A stretch of DNA of 64,000 nucleotides from Bacteroidales bacterium (GTDB lineage: Bacteria; Bacteroidota; Bacteroidia; Bacteroidales; DTGW01): positions 3,393 through 67,392 of the forward strand of contig JAOAFU010000234.1 in the NCBI GenBank assembly GCA_026416115.1. The letters are read 5' to 3'. The position numbers and the translations under genes were made by a program. The notes below the pieces were generated by a model. The model had not been told where the DNA came from and searched no databases. It worked only from the letters and a program-made list of their open reading frames with translations. The stretch's first letter is position 1; the number at the start of each line of letters is the position of its first letter. Of this stretch, positions 4,360-59,965 are shown piece after piece.

Positions 4360-4434
4360 ATGCATACTTATTTTAGCAATGGTTATTTTTATTTCTTTTT
4401 TTGGTTTACTTCGGAATTACCGGGGCTAAAATAG
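4360..4434 (+). CDS. Aromatic-rich leader peptide (24 aa) of the aromatic amino-acid operon
   Basis: ATG 4360 to TAG 4432-4434 gives MHTYFSNGYFYFFFWFTSELPGLK. Residues 4-16 contain 6 Phe, 3 Tyr and 1 Trp. Sits between a promoter-like box and a terminator hairpin just upstream of pheA. Too short for the ORF track. Confidence 0.6.
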   Translation: MHTYFSNGYFYFFFWFTSELPGLK

Positions 4435-4465
4435 GTATGATATTACAATATCAAAAAGTCCCGGT
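4419..4465 (+). promoter_or_regulatory. Putative antiterminator pairing of the attenuator
   Basis: ACCGGGGCT (4419-4427, end of leader ORF) can pair with AGTCCCGGT (4457-4465), giving 9 bp including one G:U. This sequesters the 5' arm of the terminator and is mutually exclusive with the terminator helix. Confidence 0.45.
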
Positions 4466-4486
4466 TAAACACCGGGATTTTTTTTT
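4459..4486 (+). terminator. Attenuator terminator immediately upstream of pheA
   Basis: Stem TCCCGGT / ACCGGGA (4459-4465 / 4471-4477), loop TAAAC, followed by nine T (4478-4486). The upstream A-run can extend the stem. It ends 14 nt before the pheA ATG. Confidence 0.7.
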
Positions 4487-4500
4487 AATTTAACGAGAAT

Positions 4501-5358
4501 ATGAGCACAAAAAAAAATGTTAAAAAAATTGCCATCCAAGGAGGCTATGGCGCATTTCACGAAATTGCCGCCAAACATTATTTCGAGAATGAAGAAATAG
4601 AAATTGTAACTGCAAACACTTTTAAAGATCTTTTTAAATCGCTCAGAAACAACCATGCCGATTTAGGTATAATGGCAATTGAAAATTCAATTGCCGGAAG
4701 CATACTCCCCAATTACATGCTTTTGCTCGAATCGAACATGAAAATTATTGGGGAAATTTATTTGCGCATAAAGCAAAACCTTGCCGCATTACCTGGTACA
4801 CGTATTGAAGATATTGAAGAAGTATACTCACAGCCAATCGCCCTGTTACAATGTCAGTTGTTTTTTGATAACTACCCTCATATAAAATTGGTCGATAGTA
4901 TCGACACTGCATTAAGTGCTAAAGAGATTGCTGAAAAAAAGCTAAAAAATAGGGGGGCTATTTGTTCAAAGCTTGCAGCACAAAAGTATGGGCTTGAAAT
5001 TATAGCAGAAGGCATAGAAACAAACAAAACAAATTACACACGCTTTTTAATTTTATCGGACCGGATTGGATATCATAAGATGTCCAAAAATTTGGAAAAA
5101 GCTTCGCTTAGTTTTGCTCTTAAACACGAAACAGGAAGCCTTTCAAAAGTGTTATCCATATTATCGTATTACGGAATCAATTTAACAAAAATCCAATCGA
5201 TGCCCATTCCAGGAAAGGACTGGGAATATCAGTTTTTCGTCGATGTAACCTTCGACGATTATGTAATGTACCGGCAATCGCTCGATGCAATAAGGCCTTT
5301 TACGTCGGGACTTGAGATAATGGGCGAGTATGCCAAAGGAAAAACAGTGATGGAATAA
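4501..5358 (+). CDS. pheA: Prephenate dehydratase (PDT domain plus C-terminal ACT domain)
   Basis: 285 aa. IAIQGGYGAFHE N-terminus, TRF motif region (NYTRFLIL) and a C-terminal ACT-like regulatory domain (GSLSKVLSILSYYGINLTKIQSMP). Confidence 0.9.
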   Translation: MSTKKNVKKIAIQGGYGAFHEIAAKHYFENEEIEIVTANTFKDLFKSLRNNHADLGIMAIENSIAGSILPNYMLLLESNMKIIGEIYLRIKQNLAALPGTRIEDIEEVYSQPIALLQCQLFFDNYPHIKLVDSIDTALSAKEIAEKKLKNRGAICSKLAAQKYGLEIIAEGIETNKTNYTRFLILSDRIGYHKMSKNLEKASLSFALKHETGSLSKVLSILSYYGINLTKIQSMPIPGKDWEYQFFVDVTFDDYVMYRQSLDAIRPFTSGLEIMGEYAKGKTVME

Positions 5359-20360: not shown

Positions 20361-21027
20361 GGCTGTATTTTTTTCATTGCCAGCATTTAATTCTAAGAAA
20401 ACTTCCTATAATAAATAGGATATGCGAATATATTCATTTTTAATGAATTTTTATTTCAATATAGCATATTTTATTTTATATGAAATCCATATAATCCCAA
20501 TCGTGAAAATAGCTTCCATTTATGTTGTATTTCATTAGCTACGATATTCTTTACCCAAGACTATATACTGAAAAATATGTTCACTCTGGCACTCAACAAA
20601 AATCAACGACGTTTTGAAATTAGTATTGAGACAACATACCTTGTTTCATAATTTGATTGCTATCACTCAACAGGTTTATAAAATGACTTTTTTCGATAAA
20701 ACAAATAACCAAGCTGCAGCCATTAAACATGGTTGATTAGTATCTTTGTAATTGAAACCCCTTTGGCCTAAGATTAAGCTCCCATTAGCGACATCTATCT
20801 GCTGGAAAGTAAATCCTACTCATATTATCCAATGTTATTAACCCCTGCTTAAGTGAATTATCTAACAACAGGAATATATTTTTTTGGTACGATTTTCTAC
20901 CTATCCATTATATAGTTAAACATATAGTTAATCATCTGCAATGTTCTATTAAAAAAATTAATCACTTGTTTTTATTTCTTCATATAGATATCAATATAGA
21001 TAAAATACATCTTTAATAAAAAAGTAT

Positions 21028-26098: not shown

Positions 26099-28165
26099 AT
26101 GAAGCACAAAACCATTAACCGCGAAATTAGCTGGCTGTCATTTAACGAAAGAGTTTTGCAGGAAGCACTAGACGAAAGAGTACCGTTAGTAGAGCGCCTG
26201 CGGTTTTTAGGTATATATTCAAATAATCAGGATGAATTTTTTAAAGTTCGAGTAGCTACGCTTAAACGCATGATTGATTATGGTTATGATCCCAAAAATT
26301 TACAGGGAGAGAAGCCCGAACGCATTTTAGCTAAAATTCAGGAGAAGGTTATTGAGCTGCAGAAAAAATTTACCTTAGCCTATGAACAAATACTTCAAGA
26401 GTTTGAGAAGGAGAATATATTTTTTGTAAATGAAAAACAACTTACACCCGAGCAAGGAAAATATGTAGATGCCTATTTCGATTCGGTAGTACTTCCCTTT
26501 CTTTCTCCAATTTTGTTGAGTAACGTAAACAAATTTCCTTACATGAAGGATAAATCGATATATTTTGCCATTAAGTTAGAAAATACAAAGACTAACCCCC
26601 ATAATATCGATTATGCCTTGATGGAGATTCCTTCACCATTGCTAAATCGTTTTGTTCAACTTCCATCACACGACGGAAAAAAGTACGTTATTTTGCTCGA
26701 CGACATCATACGCTATTGCTTAAAAGATATTTTTGCCATTTTCGATTACAATCATTTCGAAGCATATACCATAAAACTTACGCGCGATGCTGAGCTTGAC
26801 ATCGATAACGATCTATCTAAGAGCTTATTAGAGAAAATATCGAAAGGTGTTAGTGAGCGGAGCCATGGTCAACCTGTTCGATTTGTATATGATAAAGATA
26901 TACCAGCCGATTTGTTGGAATATATTACTAAAAGGTTAAACTTTGATCCTTCCGATACGGTGTTGGCAGGATCGCGTTACCATAATTTTAAGGACTTTAT
27001 GTCGTTTCCGAACTTAGGTGGTCCTCATTTAGAATATCCACCATTTCCACCATCAGAGCATCCTCGAATCGACAGACATGCCAGCATGTTTAAAGTAATT
27101 GCACAGCGCGACCTTATACTCTATTATCCCTATCAAAAATTTGATCACTTTGTCGACTTTCTCCGCGAGGCCTCTATGGATCCAAAAGTAAAGTCGATTT
27201 GCATTACCATTTACCGTGTAGCAAAAAACTCTAAAGTAATGAATGCATTGATCAATGCTGCACGTAACGGAAAAAAGGTTACCGTAGTAATAGAGCTTCA
27301 GGCAAGATTCGATGAGGAATCGAACATTTATTGGTCGAAAAAACTTGAAGAGGTCGGAGCTACTGTTCTATTTGGTATAAAAGGTTTAAAAGTTCATGCC
27401 AAACTTGTGCTTGTAACCCGAGAGGACGGACAATATGCAGCTATTAGCACTGGTAATTTTCACGAAGGAAATGCTTCAGTCTATACCGATATTACCTTAT
27501 TTACTTGTGATAAAAGACTTACATCTGAAGTAGAAAAATTGTTTTATTTTTTTGACAATCCTTATTGGAATTTCGATTACAAACATCTCTTGGTTTCACC
27601 TCTTTACATGCGTAAACGACTTCTTCAACTGATCGATAACGAGATTAAGAATGCCCGTAGAGGAAAAGATGCATACATTATACTAAAAATTAATAATCTG
27701 GTGGATTCGATCATGGTAAGTAAACTTTACCAGGCTAACCGTGCTGGAGTTAAAATTAAATTATTTGTTCGGGGTATATGTTGTATAACGCCTGGAGTTC
27801 CTGGACTAAGCGAAAATATTGAAGCTATAAGCGTGGTAGATAGATTTTTAGAACATTCACGTGTATTTGTTTTCTGTAACAATAATAATGAGCTTTTCTA
27901 TATTTCTTCGGCCGATTGGATGACGCGTAACCTCGATCATCGTGTCGAAGTAGCATGTCCTATCTTCGACGAAGATATAAAAAAGGAAATTAGAAAAACT
28001 CTTGAGGTCCAATTATCGGATAACGTTAAGGCAAGAATCATTAATGATGTCCAAAACAACATGTATATAAAAAATGACTTACCTCCTGTTCATTCGCAAG
28101 TAATATTATATAATTATTATAAAGAATTGTCCGAAAATAGTCCCTTTCATACAAATAACCCATGA
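26099..28165 (+). CDS. ppk1: Polyphosphate kinase 1
   Basis: 688 aa. N-terminus NREISWLSFNERVLQEA, with two PLD-like HKD-type modules (VHAKLVL..., RFLEHSRVF). Confidence 0.95.
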   Translation: MKHKTINREISWLSFNERVLQEALDERVPLVERLRFLGIYSNNQDEFFKVRVATLKRMIDYGYDPKNLQGEKPERILAKIQEKVIELQKKFTLAYEQILQEFEKENIFFVNEKQLTPEQGKYVDAYFDSVVLPFLSPILLSNVNKFPYMKDKSIYFAIKLENTKTNPHNIDYALMEIPSPLLNRFVQLPSHDGKKYVILLDDIIRYCLKDIFAIFDYNHFEAYTIKLTRDAELDIDNDLSKSLLEKISKGVSERSHGQPVRFVYDKDIPADLLEYITKRLNFDPSDTVLAGSRYHNFKDFMSFPNLGGPHLEYPPFPPSEHPRIDRHASMFKVIAQRDLILYYPYQKFDHFVDFLREASMDPKVKSICITIYRVAKNSKVMNALINAARNGKKVTVVIELQARFDEESNIYWSKKLEEVGATVLFGIKGLKVHAKLVLVTREDGQYAAISTGNFHEGNASVYTDITLFTCDKRLTSEVEKLFYFFDNPYWNFDYKHLLVSPLYMRKRLLQLIDNEIKNARRGKDAYIILKINNLVDSIMVSKLYQANRAGVKIKLFVRGICCITPGVPGLSENIEAISVVDRFLEHSRVFVFCNNNNELFYISSADWMTRNLDHRVEVACPIFDEDIKKEIRKTLEVQLSDNVKARIINDVQNNMYIKNDLPPVHSQVILYNYYKELSENSPFHTNNP

Positions 28166-34116: not shown

Positions 34117-35043
34117 CTATAACGATTTATTATTATTTCTGAGCGACTCGATAATGCTTTTTCGTTCGAAGATAGACGGTTTAACCGGAGATTGAAAATT
34201 TAATTGGCCATGAAAATGCTCAATTTTTTCAAAACCAAATTTTTCCATCCAATTGGACAAACAATTGAGAAGCTGCTCGATTTGGAATTGAGCTGGATCG
34301 TTAGGTTTTAAAATCAGAGCATTTGCTCCTGCAAGCAGATGTTTTATGGGTTCATCGGGATGAATATTGATTCGAAGTTGAGTTGCAAAATCGGCACGCG
34401 GAAAATATGCAGAAAGGTAAGCAATCCATTTTAGGTTTATTCCATGACAAAATTCGCTATCAGAATAGCTTTTTAGGAAATATTCGTGTTGATCAATATC
34501 TACATCAAAAACAGGTTGGTAAACCGTAGGACAAAAACCTTGAACACCGCGGTAAAACAGTTGTTCCACCATATTAAATAGGTTAGTAAAGTAAATTGGA
34601 AGAGTAATTAAAACGGGTATTTTAATGCTATAGGAAATTTTTGCGACAGCTTCAAGAAAAATTTTTTCATAGTCGTTCGAGCGAAAATCTTTATCATCGG
34701 GGAAAAAAAACAAGCGAAGATTAAGAGCATCAACCCCTTCTTTTTCTAATTGAGCACATAATTCATCTATTGGCATACCAATAGTTCCATCGATTGAGGC
34801 AATTAGAGGTGTTTCGATTGAATTTTTCCATTCGGAAATTTTCACAAAATAATTTTCCAACAAATTTTCCTCCTGATTTGAATTATTTAAAATCTCGAAA
34901 GGAATAGATGAAAGTAAGACACCACCATATAATTTTGCAAGCTGGAAATCGTTGGGAGAAGTAAATGGATTAATTTCCAAAATAAAAGGATTAGGAAGGG
35001 TAAGTTCGAGAAAAGAAATTTTCAGATCAACCATTGTTGTCAT
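34117..35043 (-). CDS. Dihydroorotate-dehydrogenase-like TIM-barrel protein (function unknown)
   Basis: Start taken at ATG 35043 (MTTMVDLK...), which overlaps the upstream stop as ATGA. The N-terminal L.L.NPF pattern and alternating beta/alpha layout resemble class 1 DHOD-like proteins. Catalytic residues not verified. Confidence 0.5.
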   Translation of the reverse strand: MTTMVDLKISFLELTLPNPFILEINPFTSPNDFQLAKLYGGVLLSSIPFEILNNSNQEENLLENYFVKISEWKNSIETPLIASIDGTIGMPIDELCAQLEKEGVDALNLRLFFFPDDKDFRSNDYEKIFLEAVAKISYSIKIPVLITLPIYFTNLFNMVEQLFYRGVQGFCPTVYQPVFDVDIDQHEYFLKSYSDSEFCHGINLKWIAYLSAYFPRADFATQLRINIHPDEPIKHLLAGANALILKPNDPAQFQIEQLLNCLSNWMEKFGFEKIEHFHGQLNFQSPVKPSIFERKSIIESLRNNNKSL

Positions 35044-35735
35044 TCGATTTCGTCGGTAGAACGTTTTTTCTTGGGTTTTCCTATAGAGTACGTTAATTTC
35101 CAACCCAAAATGTAGGTATAATCATTTTTTTTGAAAAAAGCATCCTGAAGCCCATAAAAGGCAGAAAGTCCCATTTTTTTATTAAATTGATATTTAGCAC
35201 CGAATTGCGTACGATATTTGTCTGAAAAAAACTCAGGATACATTAAAGTAAAGTGTTCGAACGAAAGAAAAAAGATAATGGGTTGGGTTGGCCATCTATA
35301 GTTTAAAGTGATTTTATTTCGCCATTGGATAGCATCATTACTTACATATCCATTATTTGTTTCTGCTATGTATTCCAGGCGGGTTTGCATTTCGAAAGTA
35401 AACCTTTGAATACGGGGTGCATATTTAAGTATGGCTATACCTCTATGTTCGTTGCGGTAAAAGCCTTTAGAGTAAAATCTGCTATACCTATAACCACCCG
35501 AAAGGGTAACCCTTTTAATTAATTTATAGTCGATCCCGCTTTCGGATTGAAATTTTTTTAATTCCGATGAGTTATTATCGTACCTTAATTCGTTATCCCA
35601 AAAAAAGTTGGTTTTTGAACTGAGATTATAATTCAGATCAATAGCATGCCACGATTCGAGATCGGTCTGAGCAAAAGTAATTTTTACAAAGAACAAACCA
35701 ACCAGAGTTGCTGCCTTAATCCTCATCGTCGTCAT
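35040..35735 (-). CDS. DUF2490-like outer-membrane beta-barrel protein
   Basis: 231 aa with a signal peptide. Alternating amphipathic strands rich in Tyr/Arg/Asn, ending in an aromatic-rich strand. Overlaps the upstream gene by 20 nt. Confidence 0.55.
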   Translation of the reverse strand: MTTMRIKAATLVGLFFVKITFAQTDLESWHAIDLNYNLSSKTNFFWDNELRYDNNSSELKKFQSESGIDYKLIKRVTLSGGYRYSRFYSKGFYRNEHRGIAILKYAPRIQRFTFEMQTRLEYIAETNNGYVSNDAIQWRNKITLNYRWPTQPIIFFLSFEHFTLMYPEFFSDKYRTQFGAKYQFNKKMGLSAFYGLQDAFFKKNDYTYILGWKLTYSIGKPKKKRSTDEIE

Positions 35736-36384
35736 TATCGGCGTAATAGTTATCTACAGTGTTTTCGTCGCTATAGTAATAAATACTTATTTGAACGGTA
35801 TCGCGCATAAAGTTAATTTTACCAATCTCTACGCGATTTATTTTTAAACCTGTTCTTTTCTCCAAGTCTGCAATTAACTCCTGTCTTTTCTCTGGTTTAA
35901 TAAGATCGATTTTCTCATAAGTAATAACCTTGCACGATTCGTGTCGAAGTAACCAAATTTTTTCGAGTCCAAAAATCAAAGCTACCACGATAAAATTAGT
36001 AAAAAACAATTCGGCATAACTGGTTTTTTTGTTGGCTAATGCATTAATAACAGAAATCCCAATTATTACAAAAAGATAGGTCATCTCCTTAATAGGCATT
36101 GGATTAGTTCGGTAACGAATTATGCCAAAAACAGCAAAAAGCCCTAAAGCAAACCCAAGCTGCAATTTAACATTACCCAACATAAAACATATCAGAAAAG
36201 TTATAACTGCTATCAAAATATAGGTAAACAGATAGTCCTTACGTTTGGTAATAGGATAGTACAATAACCTAACGATAATAAACACAATAAGTAGATTAAA
36301 CGAAAAACGTAGAAGTAATTCCATAAAACCTTTCGGATCGTAAATATTCAAACCAAAAAGGGTAGCATTCTTAAGTGTTTCCAT
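35716..36384 (-). CDS. DUF4956-like inner-membrane protein
   Basis: 222 aa. Four to five TM helices followed by a ~70-aa soluble C-terminal domain and an acidic tail (DNDDDED). This family is recalled as the usual genomic partner of bacterial VTC-domain proteins. Confidence 0.6.
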   Translation of the reverse strand: METLKNATLFGLNIYDPKGFMELLLRFSFNLLIVFIIVRLLYYPITKRKDYLFTYILIAVITFLICFMLGNVKLQLGFALGLFAVFGIIRYRTNPMPIKEMTYLFVIIGISVINALANKKTSYAELFFTNFIVVALIFGLEKIWLLRHESCKVITYEKIDLIKPEKRQELIADLEKRTGLKINRVEIGKINFMRDTVQISIYYYSDENTVDNYYADNDDDED

Positions 36385-36396
36385 AAATGTATATTC

Positions 36397-37167
36397 CTAT
36401 AAATTATGTAGTTTGAGAATAGTTGGCTTAAAAGCATTAGCTTTTACCTGCCGAGGATACAACGAAACAACCCCGGTACAATATTTGGATAAGCTACAAG
36501 GGTTTGTGTGCAATTGATGCATAATCTCTTTAAGGGGTGAGCAACGTACAGAAAAGTCTTGCTTTATTTCAAGTATTCCAACCTGAGGATATTGTATCGT
36601 TTGCGATGAAGAAGCAAATTCAAGTGCATAATCAAGGGTGGCTCGTTCGGTGAAATTCTTATTTACCAATGTTATTCTAATAAATTTGTTTTGAAGTACT
36701 TCATCAAAAAATTTGGCATTAAAGGGTGTATTTTTTTCCAGAAAACTGATTGCATTGGGGTTAAATACTTCGCTTTGAGTATTTTCAATTCTCTTTTTTA
36801 ACGTTTGACCCTTGTTGTTTTTGTATTTAATCTCAAAATATTCTTTTCCAGTAACATCGTAACGACGCTGACGAATTTTGTAACGATTTAATCTTCCGTT
36901 GTGATGATCGTGATAAAGTTGAAATTCAGGAGTATCAAAATAACGTGTATAATACTGAAATTGTCTTTTACCATTAATTTCAAGAATGCGGTAGTATGGC
37001 AAAGCTTCTTTCAAAACTGTGATAAGATTTGAGACAGTAAAAAAGTATTTTGTATCCAAACGGTTCATTAACTCAACAGCATCCATCTCTGCCAAGGTAA
37101 TGGGCGAATAAGCAGAAACAAGTTGTTCAATCTGGGTCTGAATCTTTTCAATACTATTGGTATTCAT
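36397..37167 (-). CDS. VTC-domain (polyphosphate-polymerase-like, triphosphate-tunnel/CYTH-like) protein
   Basis: 256 aa with no signal peptide. Motifs RLDTKYFF, YYTRYFDTPEFQLYHDHHNGRLNRYKIRQRRY and YFEIKYKNNKGQTLKKR follow the Lys/Arg-lined tunnel pattern of the Vtc4 catalytic domain. Confidence 0.75.
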   Translation of the reverse strand: MNTNSIEKIQTQIEQLVSAYSPITLAEMDAVELMNRLDTKYFFTVSNLITVLKEALPYYRILEINGKRQFQYYTRYFDTPEFQLYHDHHNGRLNRYKIRQRRYDVTGKEYFEIKYKNNKGQTLKKRIENTQSEVFNPNAISFLEKNTPFNAKFFDEVLQNKFIRITLVNKNFTERATLDYALEFASSSQTIQYPQVGILEIKQDFSVRCSPLKEIMHQLHTNPCSLSKYCTGVVSLYPRQVKANAFKPTILKLHNL

Positions 37168-53986: not shown

Positions 53987-55111
53987 ATGAAAGTTATTGC
54001 AGATAAGCATATACCCTTTTTGAAAGGTTTATTAGAGCCATATTGTAAGGTCGAATATTTAGATCCTAAGGAAATTACCCGAGAAAGTATTTCAGATGCC
54101 GATGCTCTGATCATTCGCACCCGAACCCGATGCAATAGAGAATTACTTGAAGGAACCAAGGTTAAATTTATTGCGACAGCTACCATTGGTTACGATCATA
54201 TTGATACGGAATATTGCCAAAAAAATGGAATAACCTGGACCAATGCTCCTGGTTGTAACTCTGGATCTGTTATGCAGTATGTAGCTGCATCTCTTATAAT
54301 GCTGCAACAAAAATTTGGTTTTCGATTTTCCGACATGACCATAGGTGTTGTTGGATATGGAAATGTGGGCAAGAAAGTAGTTCAACTTGCTGAAAATCTT
54401 GGGATGCGAGTTTTAATTAACGATCCGCCACTGGCACGGCAGGGTTTGTGTGGATTGATTAGTCTCAATCTTCTTTTAAAAGAATCAGATATTGTAACTG
54501 TTCATACTCCTCTGAATAGAGATGGAATAGATAAAACATATCACCTCTTCGATAAAGAAATATTTCAAACCATGCGTCCCAAAACTTTCTTTATCAATAC
54601 CTCGCGAGGCGAAGTGGTAGAAACACAAGCTCTTAATGCAATGATTGATTCGGGTCATATTGCTGCTGCTGTAATTGATGTGTGGGAAAACGAACCTGAG
54701 ATAAACCAAGAGCTCTTAAGCAAAGCCTTTATAGCAACTCCTCATATTGCAGGGTATTCGACCGATGGCAAAGCCAATGCTACTATCATGTCGATTATGG
54801 CATTAAACCATTTTTATAATTTAGGAATAAAGGAGGTTAAACTTCAACTTCCCGTTCCGGAAAACAATACTATATCTCTGGAATTTGAAAATAATAATTT
54901 CGAAAAAGTGGTTGGAAAAGCCATTTTGCATACCTACCCTATTCAAAGAGATCACTCTCAATTAACAAAAGAACCACACAATTTTGAACTGTTTAGAGAA
55001 AAATATCCCCTTCGAAGAGAATTTATGGCATATACCCTTTTATCGAAATCTAATTTAACAAATATTAACGATTGTTTGCATAAAATGGGGTTCAATTTGA
55101 AACTGATATAA
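53987..55111 (+). CDS. pdxB: 4-phosphoerythronate dehydrogenase
   Basis: 374 aa. N-terminus MKVIADKHIPF. NAD loop GVVGYGNVGKKV. Catalytic region of D-2-hydroxyacid dehydrogenases (TPHIAGYS). PdxB-specific C-terminal dimerisation domain. Confidence 0.85.
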   Translation: MKVIADKHIPFLKGLLEPYCKVEYLDPKEITRESISDADALIIRTRTRCNRELLEGTKVKFIATATIGYDHIDTEYCQKNGITWTNAPGCNSGSVMQYVAASLIMLQQKFGFRFSDMTIGVVGYGNVGKKVVQLAENLGMRVLINDPPLARQGLCGLISLNLLLKESDIVTVHTPLNRDGIDKTYHLFDKEIFQTMRPKTFFINTSRGEVVETQALNAMIDSGHIAAAVIDVWENEPEINQELLSKAFIATPHIAGYSTDGKANATIMSIMALNHFYNLGIKEVKLQLPVPENNTISLEFENNNFEKVVGKAILHTYPIQRDHSQLTKEPHNFELFREKYPLRREFMAYTLLSKSNLTNINDCLHKMGFNLKLI

Positions 55112-55151
55112 AACAAATACATAGCTAGATTGTTAAACTTGGAAAAAAGGT

Positions 55152-55316
55152 ATGCAAAAATACAGATGTATAGTTTGTGGTTATGTCTACGATCCTGAGG
55201 AAGGCGACCCCGACAGTGGTATTCCACCAGGTACACCTTTTGAAGAAATACCCGACGATTGGGTATGTCCGGTATGTGGGGTGACTAAAAAAGATTTTGT
55301 ACCTATTGAATTTTAA
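55152..55316 (+). CDS. Rubredoxin (54 aa)
   Basis: [54 protein letters not shown]. Two CxxCG knuckles plus the YDP and PF..IPDDW core. Absent from the ORF track, which instead lists a spurious antisense ORF at 55125..55430. Confidence 0.9.
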
Positions 55317-55348
55317 CAGATTGAAATTTGATATTTCAAAATAAATTT

Positions 55349-55356
55349 TATATTTG
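55349..55356 (+). promoter_or_regulatory. -7 box (TATATTTG) upstream of the first NUMOD4-HNH gene
   Basis: Exact TAnnTTTG match. Implies a ~140-nt 5' UTR. Confidence 0.4.
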
Positions 55357-55502
55357 CAAAAAAAAATAACATTAACTTTGCGTTTGAATTGATGTAAAAA
55401 ATAAACCCGACGATTTAAAACCCCAAACATACCTCTTATTACCTTTTTTCAAATAATGTAAATACTTATATAAGAATTTTAGAACTATAGTGGGGAAATT
55501 TC

Positions 55503-56075
55503 ATGATTGTTAAGTCTCAGGGACGAAGACTAAGAAAGCTCGTAGATGAAGAATGGAAGGAAATTCCAAATTCTAATGGAATGTATTTCATAAGTAATTA
55601 CGGACGAGTAAAGTCATTTATGCTTGATAAAACAAAGGGGCAAATTTTAAAGCTCCATTTGTTGCAAGGGTATTATGCTGTAACTATCAATGCATTATCG
55701 GGGAGCAAATATGTTCATCGAATGGTAGCAGAAACATGGCTCAAGCAACCCTCACCTCTTCATACATTTGTTATTCATCTCGATGGTAATAAACGCAACA
55801 ATCATGTTTCAAATTTGGCATGGGCAACCCTTGAGGAAGTAAATGCCCGAAGCTCTGAATTAATGAGAAATAAAAGTAGAAATACCGATAAAAAAAAGTT
55901 AATCACCCGAGCGAAATTAAAGGAAGAAGATGTAAAAATTATCAAATCCATGCTTCAAAGAGGTATAACCCAGAATGTTATAGCAAAATTGTTTAAGATA
56001 AGTGAAATGCAAGTTACCCGTATAAAAAGGGGTGAAAATTGGAATCATATTAAAGTAAATGAAGAAACTAATTAA
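55503..56075 (+). CDS. NUMOD4 / HNH(HNH_3-type) / C-terminal HTH protein, paralog 1
   Basis: 190 aa. NUMOD4 motif EEWKEIPNSNGMYFISNYGRVKS. HNH_3-like VHRMVAE...IHLDGNKRNNHVSNLAW. C-terminal HTH KLKEEDVKIIKSMLQRGITQNVIAKLFKISEMQVTRIKRGENW. Confidence 0.75.
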   Translation: MIVKSQGRRLRKLVDEEWKEIPNSNGMYFISNYGRVKSFMLDKTKGQILKLHLLQGYYAVTINALSGSKYVHRMVAETWLKQPSPLHTFVIHLDGNKRNNHVSNLAWATLEEVNARSSELMRNKSRNTDKKKLITRAKLKEEDVKIIKSMLQRGITQNVIAKLFKISEMQVTRIKRGENWNHIKVNEETN

Positions 56076-56079
56076 AATA

Positions 56080-56087
56080 TATATTTG
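56080..56087 (+). promoter_or_regulatory. -7 box (TATATTTG) upstream of the second NUMOD4-HNH gene
   Basis: Exact TAnnTTTG match 46 nt upstream of ATG 56134. Confidence 0.4.
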
Positions 56088-56133
56088 CACTTAAACGTTC
56101 AATCATAAATTAACAGATTCAATTATAACAACT

Positions 56134-56724
56134 ATGGGAAAAAAAGTCAATGGCAAGACAGCAGAAACATTCACTGATGAAATCTGGAAAGAAATTCCAG
56201 GTACAGAGGGAATGTATCTAATTAGTAATTACGGTAGGCTAAAGTCTTACCGTCGTGAAAAAGGCGAGGGTAAAATAATGAAATTAGCACAGGTAAAAGG
56301 TTTTAGAACAGCAAACATAAAAATTAATGGAAGATACAAATCATGTTTAGTCCACAAATTAGTAGCCGAAGCATTTGTACCCAAGCCCTCCGAACTTCAT
56401 AACTACATAACTCATATTGATGGAGATGTTGGAAACAATAGGGCTACAAATTTAAAATGGATTACCCGCGAAGAGAACTATGCTCACGTGATTCAACGTT
56501 TAAACGAAGCTAATCGTAATCGACCGGGACGTTTTGCGCCTTATGCTAAATTAACCCTTGAAGATGTTAAGCATATCAAAAACATGTTACATTTAGGGGT
56601 TAAACAAAAAGTTATTGCCAAAATGTTTTGTGTAAGCGAAATGCAGATTACACGTATTAAAAAAGGAATTAATTGGCCCGAGGTACAACACGATGAAAAC
56701 GTGAAAACCATTACCTTTCGGTAA
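56134..56724 (+). CDS. NUMOD4 / HNH(HNH_3-type) / C-terminal HTH protein, paralog 2
   Basis: 196 aa, collinear with paralog 1. Motifs EIWKEIPGTEGMYLISNYGRLKS, VHKLVAE...THIDGDVGNNRATNLKWITREEN and KLTLEDVKHIKNMLHLGVKQKVIAKMFCVSEMQITRIKKGINW. Confidence 0.75.
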   Translation: MGKKVNGKTAETFTDEIWKEIPGTEGMYLISNYGRLKSYRREKGEGKIMKLAQVKGFRTANIKINGRYKSCLVHKLVAEAFVPKPSELHNYITHIDGDVGNNRATNLKWITREENYAHVIQRLNEANRNRPGRFAPYAKLTLEDVKHIKNMLHLGVKQKVIAKMFCVSEMQITRIKKGINWPEVQHDENVKTITFR

Positions 56725-56734
56725 CCAATTATTT

Positions 56735-57002
56735 ATTAACCAATTATTAACCTAAATCATGAAGGAGGTTGCCAGTTGAGGCTCCTCCTTTTTTTATACA
56801 ATTTTGAAATTTACCTATTAACCCTCTATCTCAACGAAATAGCCGAATTATACAAGCTTACATCTAACCTACAATTAAACTTTTATTTGCTTTGTGATTT
56901 TTAACTGAACTTATTCGAAACTAATATTATGTATTGCTAAATAAAATAAAATTAACAATTGCCAAAAACAAAATTAAACCGACTATTAACTTAAAATTAA
57001 CC
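56735..57002 (+). repeat. Same-strand ATTAAC(C) boxes, several pairs with starts 11 or 22 nt apart
   Basis: Exact ATTAAC at 56735, 56746, 56817, 56951, 56985 and 56996. Variant ATTAAAC at 56874 and 56973. Start-to-start spacings are 11 nt (56735/56746), 22 nt (56951/56973), 12 nt (56973/56985) and 11 nt (56985/56996). No GTTAAT seen in this interval. Confidence 0.45.
56762..56795 (+). terminator. Rho-independent terminator after paralog 2
   Basis: AAGGAGG (56762-68) / CCTCCTT (56784-90) with an inner GCC/GGC pairing, followed by a T-run. Confidence 0.6.
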
Positions 57003-57065
57003 TTGAATTAATGATATACTTAATCGATAATCATTCCTTTGAACTCGAACAAAAAGTAGAAATTT

Positions 57066-57890
57066 ATGAAAACTTTATTCACCCTTACACTTTATTTATT
57101 AGCAAATATTTTTGTTAGTGCACAAACACAGGTAGTTCGTATCAAAGGAAGCGATACCATGCTCCCGCTTTCACAGAAAGAAGCTGAGGAATTTATGAAA
57201 CAAAACAAAGATTACAAAGTGATAGTAACAGGAGGTGGATCAGTTACAGCCGTTAATGCGCTCTTATCGGGCGATGCCGATCTTGGCATGATGTCGCGAA
57301 TTATGAATGCAGAAGAGAAGTTAAAATTTCAGCAAAAAGGCATTAAACTTACCGAGATAATTATTGGTTTCGATGCGTTAGCAGTGATTGTTCACCCTTC
57401 GAATAAAATAGACAAGCTAACAATAGAGCAGGTCGAGGCAATTTTTACAGGTGCAATAGAAAATTGGAAAGATTTAGGAGGCGATGATCGAAAGATTATA
57501 ACCGTTTCGCGCGAATCGAGCTCGGGAACTTACGGTTTTTTTAAAGAACATGTTTTACGTGATAAGGATTATGCGCCTTCAGTCCTTTTGATGCCGAATT
57601 CGGAATCGATTGTAAATGTAGTTTCGGAAACACCTGGAGCAATTGGTTATGTAGGCTTGGCCTATGTTGAAGGAAAAATAAAAACCATTGCTTTATCGAA
57701 CGATAAAGGTAAAAATTATTATAGCCCCAATCTAAACAATTGCAAAAGTCACAAATATCCGGTTTCACGTCCTCTTTTTTACTATTATCGCGACGAGTCT
57801 GAAAAACTAGTAAAACCATTTGTACAATATGTTCTCTCGGAACAAGGACAACGTAATATTCAGCTGGTAGGTTATGTTCCTTTACAGTAA
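57066..57890 (+). CDS. PstS-family phosphate-binding periplasmic protein (no adjacent pstCAB)
   Basis: 274 aa with a signal peptide. Motifs IKGSDTM and SRESSSGTYGFF are typical of PBP-like_2/PstS-family binding proteins. Confidence 0.8.
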   Translation: MKTLFTLTLYLLANIFVSAQTQVVRIKGSDTMLPLSQKEAEEFMKQNKDYKVIVTGGGSVTAVNALLSGDADLGMMSRIMNAEEKLKFQQKGIKLTEIIIGFDALAVIVHPSNKIDKLTIEQVEAIFTGAIENWKDLGGDDRKIITVSRESSSGTYGFFKEHVLRDKDYAPSVLLMPNSESIVNVVSETPGAIGYVGLAYVEGKIKTIALSNDKGKNYYSPNLNNCKSHKYPVSRPLFYYYRDESEKLVKPFVQYVLSEQGQRNIQLVGYVPLQ

Positions 57891-57913: not shown

Positions 57914-58420
57914 ATGAGGTATATTTTAATTATAGGGCTTTGCTTGCAAGGCATGGTAGCTCTTTGCCAATACAAAACCATAACAATAGGTAACAAAATC
58001 TGGATGGCAGAAAACCTTAACCGCGATATACCAGGTAGCTACGTATACAATGGACAACCCGAGTTAGCTAAAAAATACGGCAGGTTATATACCTGGGAAG
58101 CAGCACGGAATGCATGTCCTACTGGTTGGAGATTACCAACTGCAAGCGAATGGGACGAGTTAATTGCGGCAGTCGGAAATGAAAATAATGCCGGAAAACA
58201 GTTAAAAGCGAATGGTTCTAGCGGATTTAATGCGCTTTATGCAGGGTATACAAATGGTCAATCGTTCTTTTTCCTAGAGTCGATGGGAGGTTTCTGGAGT
58301 GCCACAGAATACGACCAAATGCACGCTTGGTATTACTTTTTCACAAACAAGAACGATGCATTCACAAAAAGTTATTTTAATAAAAACTATGCCTTCTCGG
58401 TTCGTTGCATTAAAAAGTAA
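57914..58420 (+). CDS. FISUMP (Fibrobacter succinogenes major paralogous) domain protein
   Basis: 168 aa with a signal peptide. Motifs IGNKIWMAENLN, YGRLYTWEAA, CPTGWRLPT..EW, GGFWSAT, AFSVRCIK. Confidence 0.85.
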   Translation: MRYILIIGLCLQGMVALCQYKTITIGNKIWMAENLNRDIPGSYVYNGQPELAKKYGRLYTWEAARNACPTGWRLPTASEWDELIAAVGNENNAGKQLKANGSSGFNALYAGYTNGQSFFFLESMGGFWSATEYDQMHAWYYFFTNKNDAFTKSYFNKNYAFSVRCIKK

Positions 58421-58423
58421 AAT

Positions 58424-59965
58424 ATGCAGATAACTATTGCTAAAAGGTTTTCCTTAGGTTTGTTGTTAATTTTTGCAGGCGTACTGACAAATATTTTTTA
58501 TACTTCTATTATAGTTTATAAAAATAAAAAGCTTAACGAGCGTATCACACGGCAGTACCAACCAGTAAGAGCTCATTTACAAGAGCTTTCAGTTATGATT
58601 CGTCGAAGCGAGATGCTTATCCGTAGCTGGGTTTTTATCGATCGCATCAGTAAAACCCCCGATAAACTCGAGTTGGAAAACATCATTCAAAATAAATTCC
58701 CAGTTCTCGACGAAAACATAAATATGCTTAGATTAAGGTGGAATAGTAACGATAGCATTAAGTTTGCAGATTGGTATACATCAATTTCAGACGATATTCG
58801 AAAAAAATTATTTTCTGGGTACTCCGAAATAATGACCCAATTATCGAGTCCCGAAAGCTATAACGATCCCCTAACGATGTTGAATATCGTCCCAAAAGTT
58901 GAGTACAAAGGAGAACTTCTCACCCTTGGCGACAGTATTATTAACGAGATAGACAAAATGTATACAAAAATGGCAGCTGTCGAAAACAGGGGACGTGAAC
59001 AAATGGCAAGCTTTTTCGATAACTTCTACAAAATGGCTATTATTTCGGGAATTATCATAATTCTGATTGCTATAATTGTATCATCCTGGTTTGGTAAAAC
59101 CCTATTGATCCCATTAAAAAATACTATTCAATTTGCCCGACAAATTCAATTAGGCAGATTAAGTGTAAAACTACAAACAAGTAGGAAGGATGAGATAGGA
59201 ATAATGATAGGCACCTTAAATAGCATGAAAGATCAACTAGCGGAAATTATTGGCGATATAAAGTCGGCTGTAACGAATATGTCAAAATCGAGCGAAGAGA
59301 TACTGCATGCTGCCAACATGTTATCGTCAAATGCGAATCAGCAGGCATCTTTTGTTGAGGAAATCTCAGCTTCGATCGAAGAAATGACAGCTAATACAGC
59401 ACAGAATGCAGATCATTCGAAACATGTTCGCGACATGTCGGTCTTAATTTCGAAAGAATTGGAGGAAGTAGGTGCCACTGTGCGAAAATCGTCAGAATCG
59501 ATGAGAAATATAGCAGAAAAAATTAATATCATCAGCGACATTGCATTTCAAACCAACTTGCTTGCATTAAACGCAGCAGTCGAAGCAGCTCGAGCCGGAG
59601 AAAACGGAAAAGGTTTTGCTGTTGTAGCCACTGAGGTAAGAAAACTTGCAGAACGAAGCCGGATGGCAGCCGACGAAATTATTTCCCTTACGCATTCTTC
59701 GTTCGAAATATCAGAATATTCTACTGCTCAAGTTGAGAAGATTATTCCTCAAATTCTTCACCATTCTCAACTGGTTGATGAAATGTATCATGCCAACCAA
59801 GAATTGAAAGTAACCATCGAACACATTAACCATTCAACCCAACAACTTAGTCAATTTACCCAATACGTTGCTCAACTTGCCACAGAATTGCACGAGCGCT
59901 CGAAACAAATTGATACCTTATCTGAACATTTCGAGCAAAAAACTGCTTTTTTTGTTTTAAACTGA
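58424..59965 (+). CDS. Methyl-accepting chemotaxis protein (two TM helices, periplasmic sensor region, HAMP, MA signalling domain)
   Basis: 513 aa. TM1 at aa ~10-32 and TM2 at aa ~205-226, followed by HAMP. Highly conserved hairpin tip [40 protein letters not shown]. Confidence 0.9.

Follow-up and report, generated by a model that had tools for sequence, protein, structure and literature searches.

The locus considered here raises the question of why one hexamer, ATTAAC, recurs on a single strand around a pair of genes for HNH-HTH proteins (HNH1 and HNH2) and upstream of an operon for a PstS-like phosphate-binding protein and a methyl-accepting chemotaxis protein (MCP). The locus lies in a stretch of 64,000 nucleotides (64 kb; hereafter the window) of contig JAOAFU010000234.1 from a Bacteroidales bacterium. 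Eight exact plus-strand copies of ATTAAC start at 55371, 56109, 56735, 56746, 56817, 56951, 56985 and 56996; those at 56735, 56746, 56817 and 56996 extend to ATTAACC, and a variant, ATTAAAC, is present at 56973. They fall in the three intergenic pieces examined (55317..55502, 56076..56133 and 56725..57065; 585 bp in total, 25% GC), which contain 0 copies of the reverse-orientation GTTAAT. A first-pass annotation of this DNA had reported the same eight copies and the absence of GTTAAT, singling out the ATTAACC pair at 56735/56746 and the single box at 56817, and all of its positions for these boxes were confirmed. It had offered two explanations, Pho boxes read by a PhoB-type regulator or recognition sites of the adjacent HNH-HTH proteins. 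The local enrichment in fact arises from at least three different things and not from one motif system; a single system embracing all eight boxes was rejected because the conservation and the context of the boxes differ from one to the next. The boxes proximal to the pstS-like gene belong to a helically phased array, which is probably a Pho box.

The enrichment is local. Across both strands of the window, ATTAAC was observed 80 times against 75.6 expected, i.e., without enrichment. The remaining 4980 bp of intergenic DNA in the window hold five plus-strand and three minus-strand copies, from which approximately 0.5 ATTAAC is expected per 585 bp per strand; the first-order Markov expectation for 585 bp is 0.48-0.83. 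The first-pass annotation had estimated well under one copy by chance. To allow for the choice of hexamer and place, a look-elsewhere statistic was taken, namely the highest count that a hexamer made up of three or more different letters reaches in any 585 bp of concatenated intergenic DNA. In 300 dinucleotide-preserving shuffles this maximum was at most 7 (7 in 8/300), against 8 observed. As the shuffles never reached 8, the enrichment of ATTAAC is real, and it persists both against the other intergenic DNA of the window and against shuffled sequence. The sporadic copy that it had cited at 20847 is located at 20837.

The phased array comprises five TTAAC-like units on the plus strand at 56951..57018, identified by a spacing scan and by conservation: TTAAC at 56952 (-114 relative to the ATG of the pstS-like gene), TTAAAC at 56974 (-92), TTAAC at 56986 (-80), TTAAC at 56997 (-69) and TTAAT at 57008 (-58). 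The steps from unit to unit are 22, 12, 11 and 11 nt; the spacings of 22, 12 and 11 nt that had been given for the cluster of boxes were correct, as was its distance of 64 nt from the ATG at 57066. When written as 8-bp boxes with 3-bp linkers, the proximal part of the array reads ATTAACTT aaa ATTAACCT tga ATTAATGA. Arrays were scored as the number of matches out of 15 to three TTAAC units exactly 11 nt apart. On both strands of the 64 kb, a score of at least 13/15 was obtained only at 56975 and 56986, both on the plus strand and both scoring 14. The two hits jointly describe a TAAAC-TTAAC-TTAAC-TTAAT run at 56975, 56986, 56997 and 57008, and the unit at 56952 is in phase with it, two turns upstream. 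Block shuffles yielded 0.033 hits scoring at least 14 per window, and the other spacings tested at the array (6-10 and 12-17) gave nothing there. Downstream of the array is a putative -7-like promoter element, TTCCTTTG (57034..57041, plus strand), which lacks the TA of the Bacteroidota consensus TAnnTTTG. No -33 TTTG was found upstream of this element; the last array unit occupies its expected place, and the distance from the end of the array to the conserved -7-like TTTG is 26 nt.

Relatives recovered with the PstS and HNH2 proteins (loci L081, L012, L084 and L085) carry a PstS that is 71-73% identical, in the same operon with the gene order pstS-like / Fib_succ_major / MCP retained. Their promoters were compared with that of the window without gaps, anchored on the ATG. 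TTAA cores were present at -80, -69 and -58 in four independent loci (window, L081, L012 and L084/85), and all 12/12 positions in the cores were invariant, compared with 8/21 of the other positions (Fisher p = 3.6e-4). Similarity to the window begins exactly at the -80 unit, and the linkers and the sequence upstream have diverged. The spacers between HNH2 and the operon differ in sequence as well as in length (341, 165, 439 and 165 nt in the window, L081, L012 and L084/85, respectively). CTTTG is likewise invariant: in the window and L081 it follows the last unit by exactly 23 nt, and in L012 and L084 its distance from the ATG is unchanged. In L081 the array reads CTTAACCT-aaa-CTTAAACC-aat-GTTAAACA.

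The array motif was defined on the window and then tested on loci that were not involved in its definition, by searching the 300 nt upstream of pstS homologues for coding-strand arrays with 11-nt spacing and a score of 12/15 or higher. Such an array was carried by 25 of 78 independent pstS-homologue loci from many phyla. The density of arrays upstream of pstS homologues was 1.54 per kb versus 0.049 per kb elsewhere (about 31-fold), and spacings of 9, 10, 12 and 13 nt were found in only 0-2 of the same 78 loci. The arrays are visible even in genomes of 65-70% GC, as exemplified by L038 (GTTAACACCGAATTAACACGGTCATAACA), and many of those in other phyla read TTAACA. Two Bacteroidales loci with canonical pst operons, L007 (complete, pstS-pstC-pstA-pstB-phoU) and L009 (pstS-pstC-pstA), have [T/G]TAAC(A) arrays, with four units in L007. 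Both of the arrays checked among those counted as elsewhere (L038 and L080) precede genes for phosphate-selective porin O/P. In L035, one array precedes pstS and another precedes pstC, beside a pair of genes for an OmpR-family regulator and a histidine kinase. A position weight matrix built from arrays of other phyla was set aside as evidence, because its training sites had been chosen by TTAAC score and the test would have been circular. Arrays were also seen within pst operons, namely a second phased array TTTAACCAAAACGTAACCATTTCTTCAAT at the pstC/pstA junction of L007 (6065-6093) and arrays between pstS and pstC in L035 and L039; internal Pho boxes seem to be common in pst operons.

PHO boxes in general consist of 11-nt direct-repeat units to which PhoB-type regulators bind head to tail (PMC4415409). 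The Pho box of Synechocystis SphR, a cyanobacterial PhoB orthologue, is built of three or more 8-bp CTTAACCT repeats separated by 3-bp linkers, and the tabulated boxes include TTTAACTTgaaATTAACCA (PMC1906773, citing the Synechocystis work). The window array shares with this box the TTAAC core, the 8+3 = 11-bp unit, the direct orientation, the presence of at least three units and the location upstream of a pstS-type gene. It differs from the cyanobacterial box in its Bacteroidales-like host and in the first box position, which is A rather than C/T; furthermore, the putative window promoter belongs to the Bacteroidota -7/-33 class, the operon has a chemoreceptor in place of PstCAB, and the window site is a prediction. 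The Pho box of E. coli PhoB has two 11-bp direct-repeat units with the core CTGTCAT and takes the place of the -35 element. The window array resembles it in having 11-bp direct repeats, which imply head-to-tail dimers, in adjoining the putative proximal promoter element and in the lack of a -35 / -33 hexamer, but its core is TTAAC instead of CTGTCAT and it has five units instead of 2-4. Bacillus subtilis PhoP boxes are TT(A/T/C)ACA repeats about 11 bp apart; TTAACA-like hexamers, direct repetition and one-helical-turn spacing are common to them and the window array, whose units continue with T or C rather than A.

Based on the phasing, the conservation and the recurrence at phosphate genes, we regard 56951-57018 as a probable Pho box with 11-bp direct-repeat units and a TTAAC core on the coding strand. 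Under phosphate limitation, dimers of a phosphorylated OmpR-family regulator of the PhoB/SphR type would bind head to tail on the units at -114, -92, -80, -69 and -58. Since the array ends at the expected -33 site, upstream of the weak -7 element, the bound regulator would substitute for the absent -33 contact and recruit RNA polymerase, leading to transcription of the pstS-like, Fib_succ_major and MCP genes. The promoter would then be activator-dependent, with the proximal regulator dimer standing in for the upstream hexamer in the manner of E. coli Pho promoters. We infer the identity of the regulator, the transcription start, the geometry of activation and the response to phosphate from sequence. 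The PhoB proposal of the first-pass annotation is well supported for the pstS-proximal cluster (56951-57012), by virtue of its 11-nt phasing, its uniqueness in the window, its conservation in orthologous loci and its recurrence at Pho genes. It does not extend to the boxes at the HNH genes, where 55371 belongs to a -7 box, 56109 is lost in relatives and 56735/56746 follow HNH2.

Several points weigh against a Pho box. The units at 56974 and 56986 start 12 nt apart instead of 11, and the in-phase position at 56963 is degenerate. A Pfam scan of 30 window genes, out of a set with 26 further open reading frames, brought up neither phoB nor phoR. No published Pho box of Bacteroidota turned up in the literature searched, and the test across loci was a simple match score and not a trained model. 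If the array is functional, the PstS-like protein and the chemoreceptor of this Bacteroidales lineage would be under phosphate-starvation control, pointing to phosphate-directed chemosensory signalling in a phylum in which chemotaxis-type systems are rare. As an operator it would not be mechanistically new, being of a kind already known, and it supplies a concrete model for the Pho box of Bacteroidota, with a TTAAC core and 11-bp units. The TTAAC(A) arrays found across phyla suggest that Pho boxes of the cyanobacterial type occur much more widely than those of the E. coli type, and their recurrence would be useful for regulon prediction in metagenome-assembled genomes.

The array could instead be read by a direct-repeat regulator other than PhoB, for example an OmpR-family member dedicated to the chemoreceptor operon, with a signal other than phosphate. 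OmpR-family proteins generally read 10-11-bp direct repeats (PMC4415409), the operon encodes a PstS-like protein and an MCP rather than a transporter, and the scanned window genes include no phoBR. However, the same core, spacing and orientation recur at canonical Bacteroidales pstSCAB-phoU operons and, in many phyla, ahead of genes for pstS, pstC and phosphate porins, and the motif matches the characterised Pho box of SphR (PMC1906773). A separate regulator that copies the specificity of the Pho box is the less parsimonious assumption, and we consider it unlikely.

Of the boxes outside the array, those at 56735 and 56746 form a perfect two-unit pair 11 nt apart. They lie in the HNH2 3' tail, TAACCAATTATTTATTAACCAATTATTAACCT (56722..56753, plus strand), which sits between the stop codon and the terminator and is predicted to be transcribed. 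In this tail, TAACCA-TTATTA is invariant in six aligned loci (window, L081, L012, L084, L085 and L087); L082 has the variant CTAATCAATTATTAAC, and the tail is absent from L083. In place of the ATTAACC pair itself, L081 and L012 have CTAACC / TTAATC, and L087 has CTAACC / TTATCC. L082 and L087 retain the tail although the gene that follows it there is no relative of pstS. As it is kept whatever gene follows, the element goes with HNH2 and not with pstS, and a role for it as an auxiliary PhoB site can be proposed only tentatively. A predicted intrinsic terminator of HNH2, a GAAGGAGG...CCTCCTTT hairpin followed by a T run (56761..56798, plus strand; folding energy -16.8 kcal/mol, z = -3.1), stands between the tail boxes and the pstS promoter. 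It was identified by folding, a consensus terminator scan having found nothing, and the hairpin is kept in relatives with different stem sequences. A dispersed repeat or miniature inverted-repeat transposable element (MITE) was considered and rejected, as neither the HNH2 tail nor the 56800-56950 segment has further copies in the window or the other loci. A search of 55100-57200 against Rfam gave no RNA element at E values up to 1.

The second proposal of the first-pass annotation concerned the HNH-HTH proteins themselves. HNH1 (55503-56075, plus strand, 190 amino acids) and HNH2 (56134-56724, plus strand, 196 amino acids) encode I-HmuI-like NUMOD4-HNH-HTH proteins that are 44% identical to each other, with NUMOD4 and HNH_3 above the Pfam gathering thresholds. 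The only match of the family profile in the PDB was 1u3e (I-HmuI; E = 3.4e-16), and an AlphaFold model of HNH2 (predicted local distance difference test score, pLDDT, 84) could be matched to the fold of 1u3e from end to end, C-terminal HTH included (Foldseek E = 7e-8, 178 columns). I-HmuI, the closest known relative of these proteins, is an HNH nicking homing endonuclease encoded by an intron of phage SPO1, and it has in common with HNH1 and HNH2 the NUMOD4 sheet, the HNH motif, the helical linker and the C-terminal HTH. Unlike the intron-encoded I-HmuI, HNH1 and HNH2 are encoded by free-standing chromosomal genes in conserved synteny after pdxB-rubredoxin. This pdxB-rubredoxin-HNH order is conserved across relatives at 54-94% identity regardless of the next gene, so the mobile or sporadic distribution of an I-HmuI-type homing endonuclease was not seen among them. 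In I-HmuI, D74, H75 and N96 are metal-binding/catalytic residues, D74 being a metal ligand. The equivalent of H75, the general-base histidine, is invariant in the family; the equivalent of D74 is I, T or C in 25/25 aligned HNH-HTH members, and that of N96 is found in the HNH2 clade but not in HNH1 or most other members. With the D74 equivalent lost and that of N96 mostly lost, the HNH-HTH proteins are possibly non-catalytic DNA binders, and the residues together with the synteny suggest a domesticated family.

The two genes differ in their retention. HNH1 orthologues are intact in L082 and L083 and decayed or missing in L081, L012, L084 and L086. The remnant in L081 (4410-4889, match at 4416-4688) shows 31% identity over 90 amino acids; the corresponding intervals are 2399-2902 in L012 and 2040-2500 in L084. 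HNH2 stays 92-94% identical in the closest pstS-bearing relatives, where HNH1 is decayed or missing.

If all boxes were recognition or operator sites of these proteins, they would serve autoregulation or control of the downstream operon, or be remnants of homing sites. The highly conserved C-terminal HTH and the full-length I-HmuI-like fold fit such a function, as do the boxes in both HNH promoters and directly after HNH2 and the two-TTAACC-unit tail that is conserved with HNH2 ahead of any downstream gene. On the other hand, the target of I-HmuI is a single long, asymmetric site bound by a monomer, unlike short direct repeats in helical phase. TTAAC is not enriched near non-redundant HNH-HTH loci from metagenomes, with 27 copies versus 24.5 expected in 57 upstream regions and 10 versus 9.3 in 58 downstream regions. 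The phased arrays instead go with pstS: they occur beside pstS, porin and pstC genes of phyla and loci that lack HNH genes, and L082 and L083, with both HNH genes and no pstS, have none apart from the HNH2 tail. Moreover, a -7 box accounts better for the copy at 55371, and the copy at 56109 has disappeared from L086 and L087. As the arrays follow pstS and not the HNH genes, the proposal found no support for the array, and as an account of all boxes it is very unlikely. A narrower version would have the HNH2 tail and the TTAAC boxes of the HNH promoters bound by domesticated, possibly non-catalytic HNH-HTH proteins, at sites whose TTAAC core would be shared with the Pho box, so that a pair of former homing endonucleases would act as transcription factors in cross-talk with PhoB at a phosphate-chemoreceptor operon; this is a speculative idea, to which we give little credence.

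A different sequence stands out upstream of the HNH-HTH family. The most enriched 5-mer in 57 upstream regions was ACGTT (27 versus 9.9 expected). In the window, an AACGTT-centred near-palindrome, TTTGCACTTAAACGTTCAAT, lies right after the -7 box of HNH2 (56084-56105) and is conserved in orthologues, and an inverted copy of it is present inside the HNH2 coding region (56489-56503). A distant HNH-HTH subfamily has TTCGTCATAACGTTTAAAC near -80, and in several members AAAACGTTATAA is found as well, near -24. The loci behind these observations are L081, L012, L084, L087, L089, L106, L110, L113, L119, L121, L138, L140, L149, L151, L154 and L160. The AACGTT palindrome is a candidate autoregulatory operator of the HNH-HTH proteins.

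The three remaining boxes, at 55371, 56109 and 56817, have no phased partner. The ATTAAC at 55371 (55371..55380, plus strand) overlaps TAACTTTG (55373-55380), the second of two matches to TAnnTTTG, 24 nt after the first -7 box, TATATTTG (55349). In L086 the equivalent hexamer is TTTAAC and TAACTTTG is retained; the region could not be aligned in L082 or L083. The box belongs to this predicted tandem -7 promoter box of HNH1. The ATTAAC at 56109..56114 (plus strand) is in the HNH2 leader, 22 nt past the -7 TTTG. It is kept in L081, L012 and L084, is reduced to TTAAC in L082 and is lost in L086 (AAAAAC) and L087. The ATTAACC at 56817..56823 (plus strand) lies in a stretch of the spacer without counterpart in relatives; the 56800-56950 segment has no counterpart in L081 and L084/85 and no similarity in L012, and it is unrepeated elsewhere in the window. 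Conservation of the boxes in relatives, whose absence the first-pass annotation would have counted against its reading, was found for the three proximal array units and not for 56817, and only in part for 56109.

A very improbable account is that the whole enrichment lacks any function and came about through the low complexity and AT richness of the intergenic DNA, together with a small local duplication: the three pieces are indeed low in GC, clusters of five identical hexamers per 350 bp are found elsewhere in the window, one 11-nt tandem duplication yields two of the boxes and the singletons at 56109 and 56817 are not conserved, but 0/300 shuffles reached 8, the array is unique in the window and specific for 11 nt, its TTAA cores are fixed relative to the ATG despite diverging linkers, and such arrays stand out in GC-rich genomes. 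For 56109 and 56817 only, an AT-rich by-product is the best account. A 45-nt similarity between 55332-55376 and 56912-56956 (71%) was judged to be AT-rich noise. The HNH1 leader (55381-55502), which extends for about 120-145 nt past the -7 boxes, contains a short C-rich motif, AAAACCCCAAAC, with a conserved CCCCAA around 55424-55429; the motif recurs in L081, L012, L084, L086 and L082.

The window has Bacteroidota features, namely SusD, type IX secretion system (T9SS) sorting domains and -7 TAnnTTTG promoters. The HNH genes are preceded by a pdxB-like gene (53987-55111) and a rubredoxin gene (55152-55316). The operon downstream of the array, on the plus strand, consists of the gene for the pstS-like periplasmic phosphate-binding protein (57066..57890; PBP_like_2, E = 2.6e-46), the gene for the Fib_succ_major domain protein (57914..58420; Pfam) and the MCP gene (58424..59965; HAMP and MCPsignal in Pfam). 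The closest solved structures to the pstS-like product are the phosphate-binding proteins 4pqj and 4omb (E about 1e-40), and the product is 50-55% identical to PstS of canonical pst operons of Saprospiraceae and Bacteroidales. By homology, it is a genuine PstS relative. Other phosphate-related genes of the window, on the minus strand at 26099-28165 and 35040-37167, are the gene for polyphosphate kinase 1 and a cluster with VTC-domain, DUF4956 and DUF2490 genes; the array scan gave no phased TTAAC hit of 12/15 or higher beside either of them. The gene content of the operon suggests PstS-coupled phosphate chemosensing in a phylum where Che systems are uncommon. The PstS-like, Fib_succ_major and MCP operon is kept within the Bacteroidales-like lineage, and a CheA gene is located near the L082 locus (L082 1-954).

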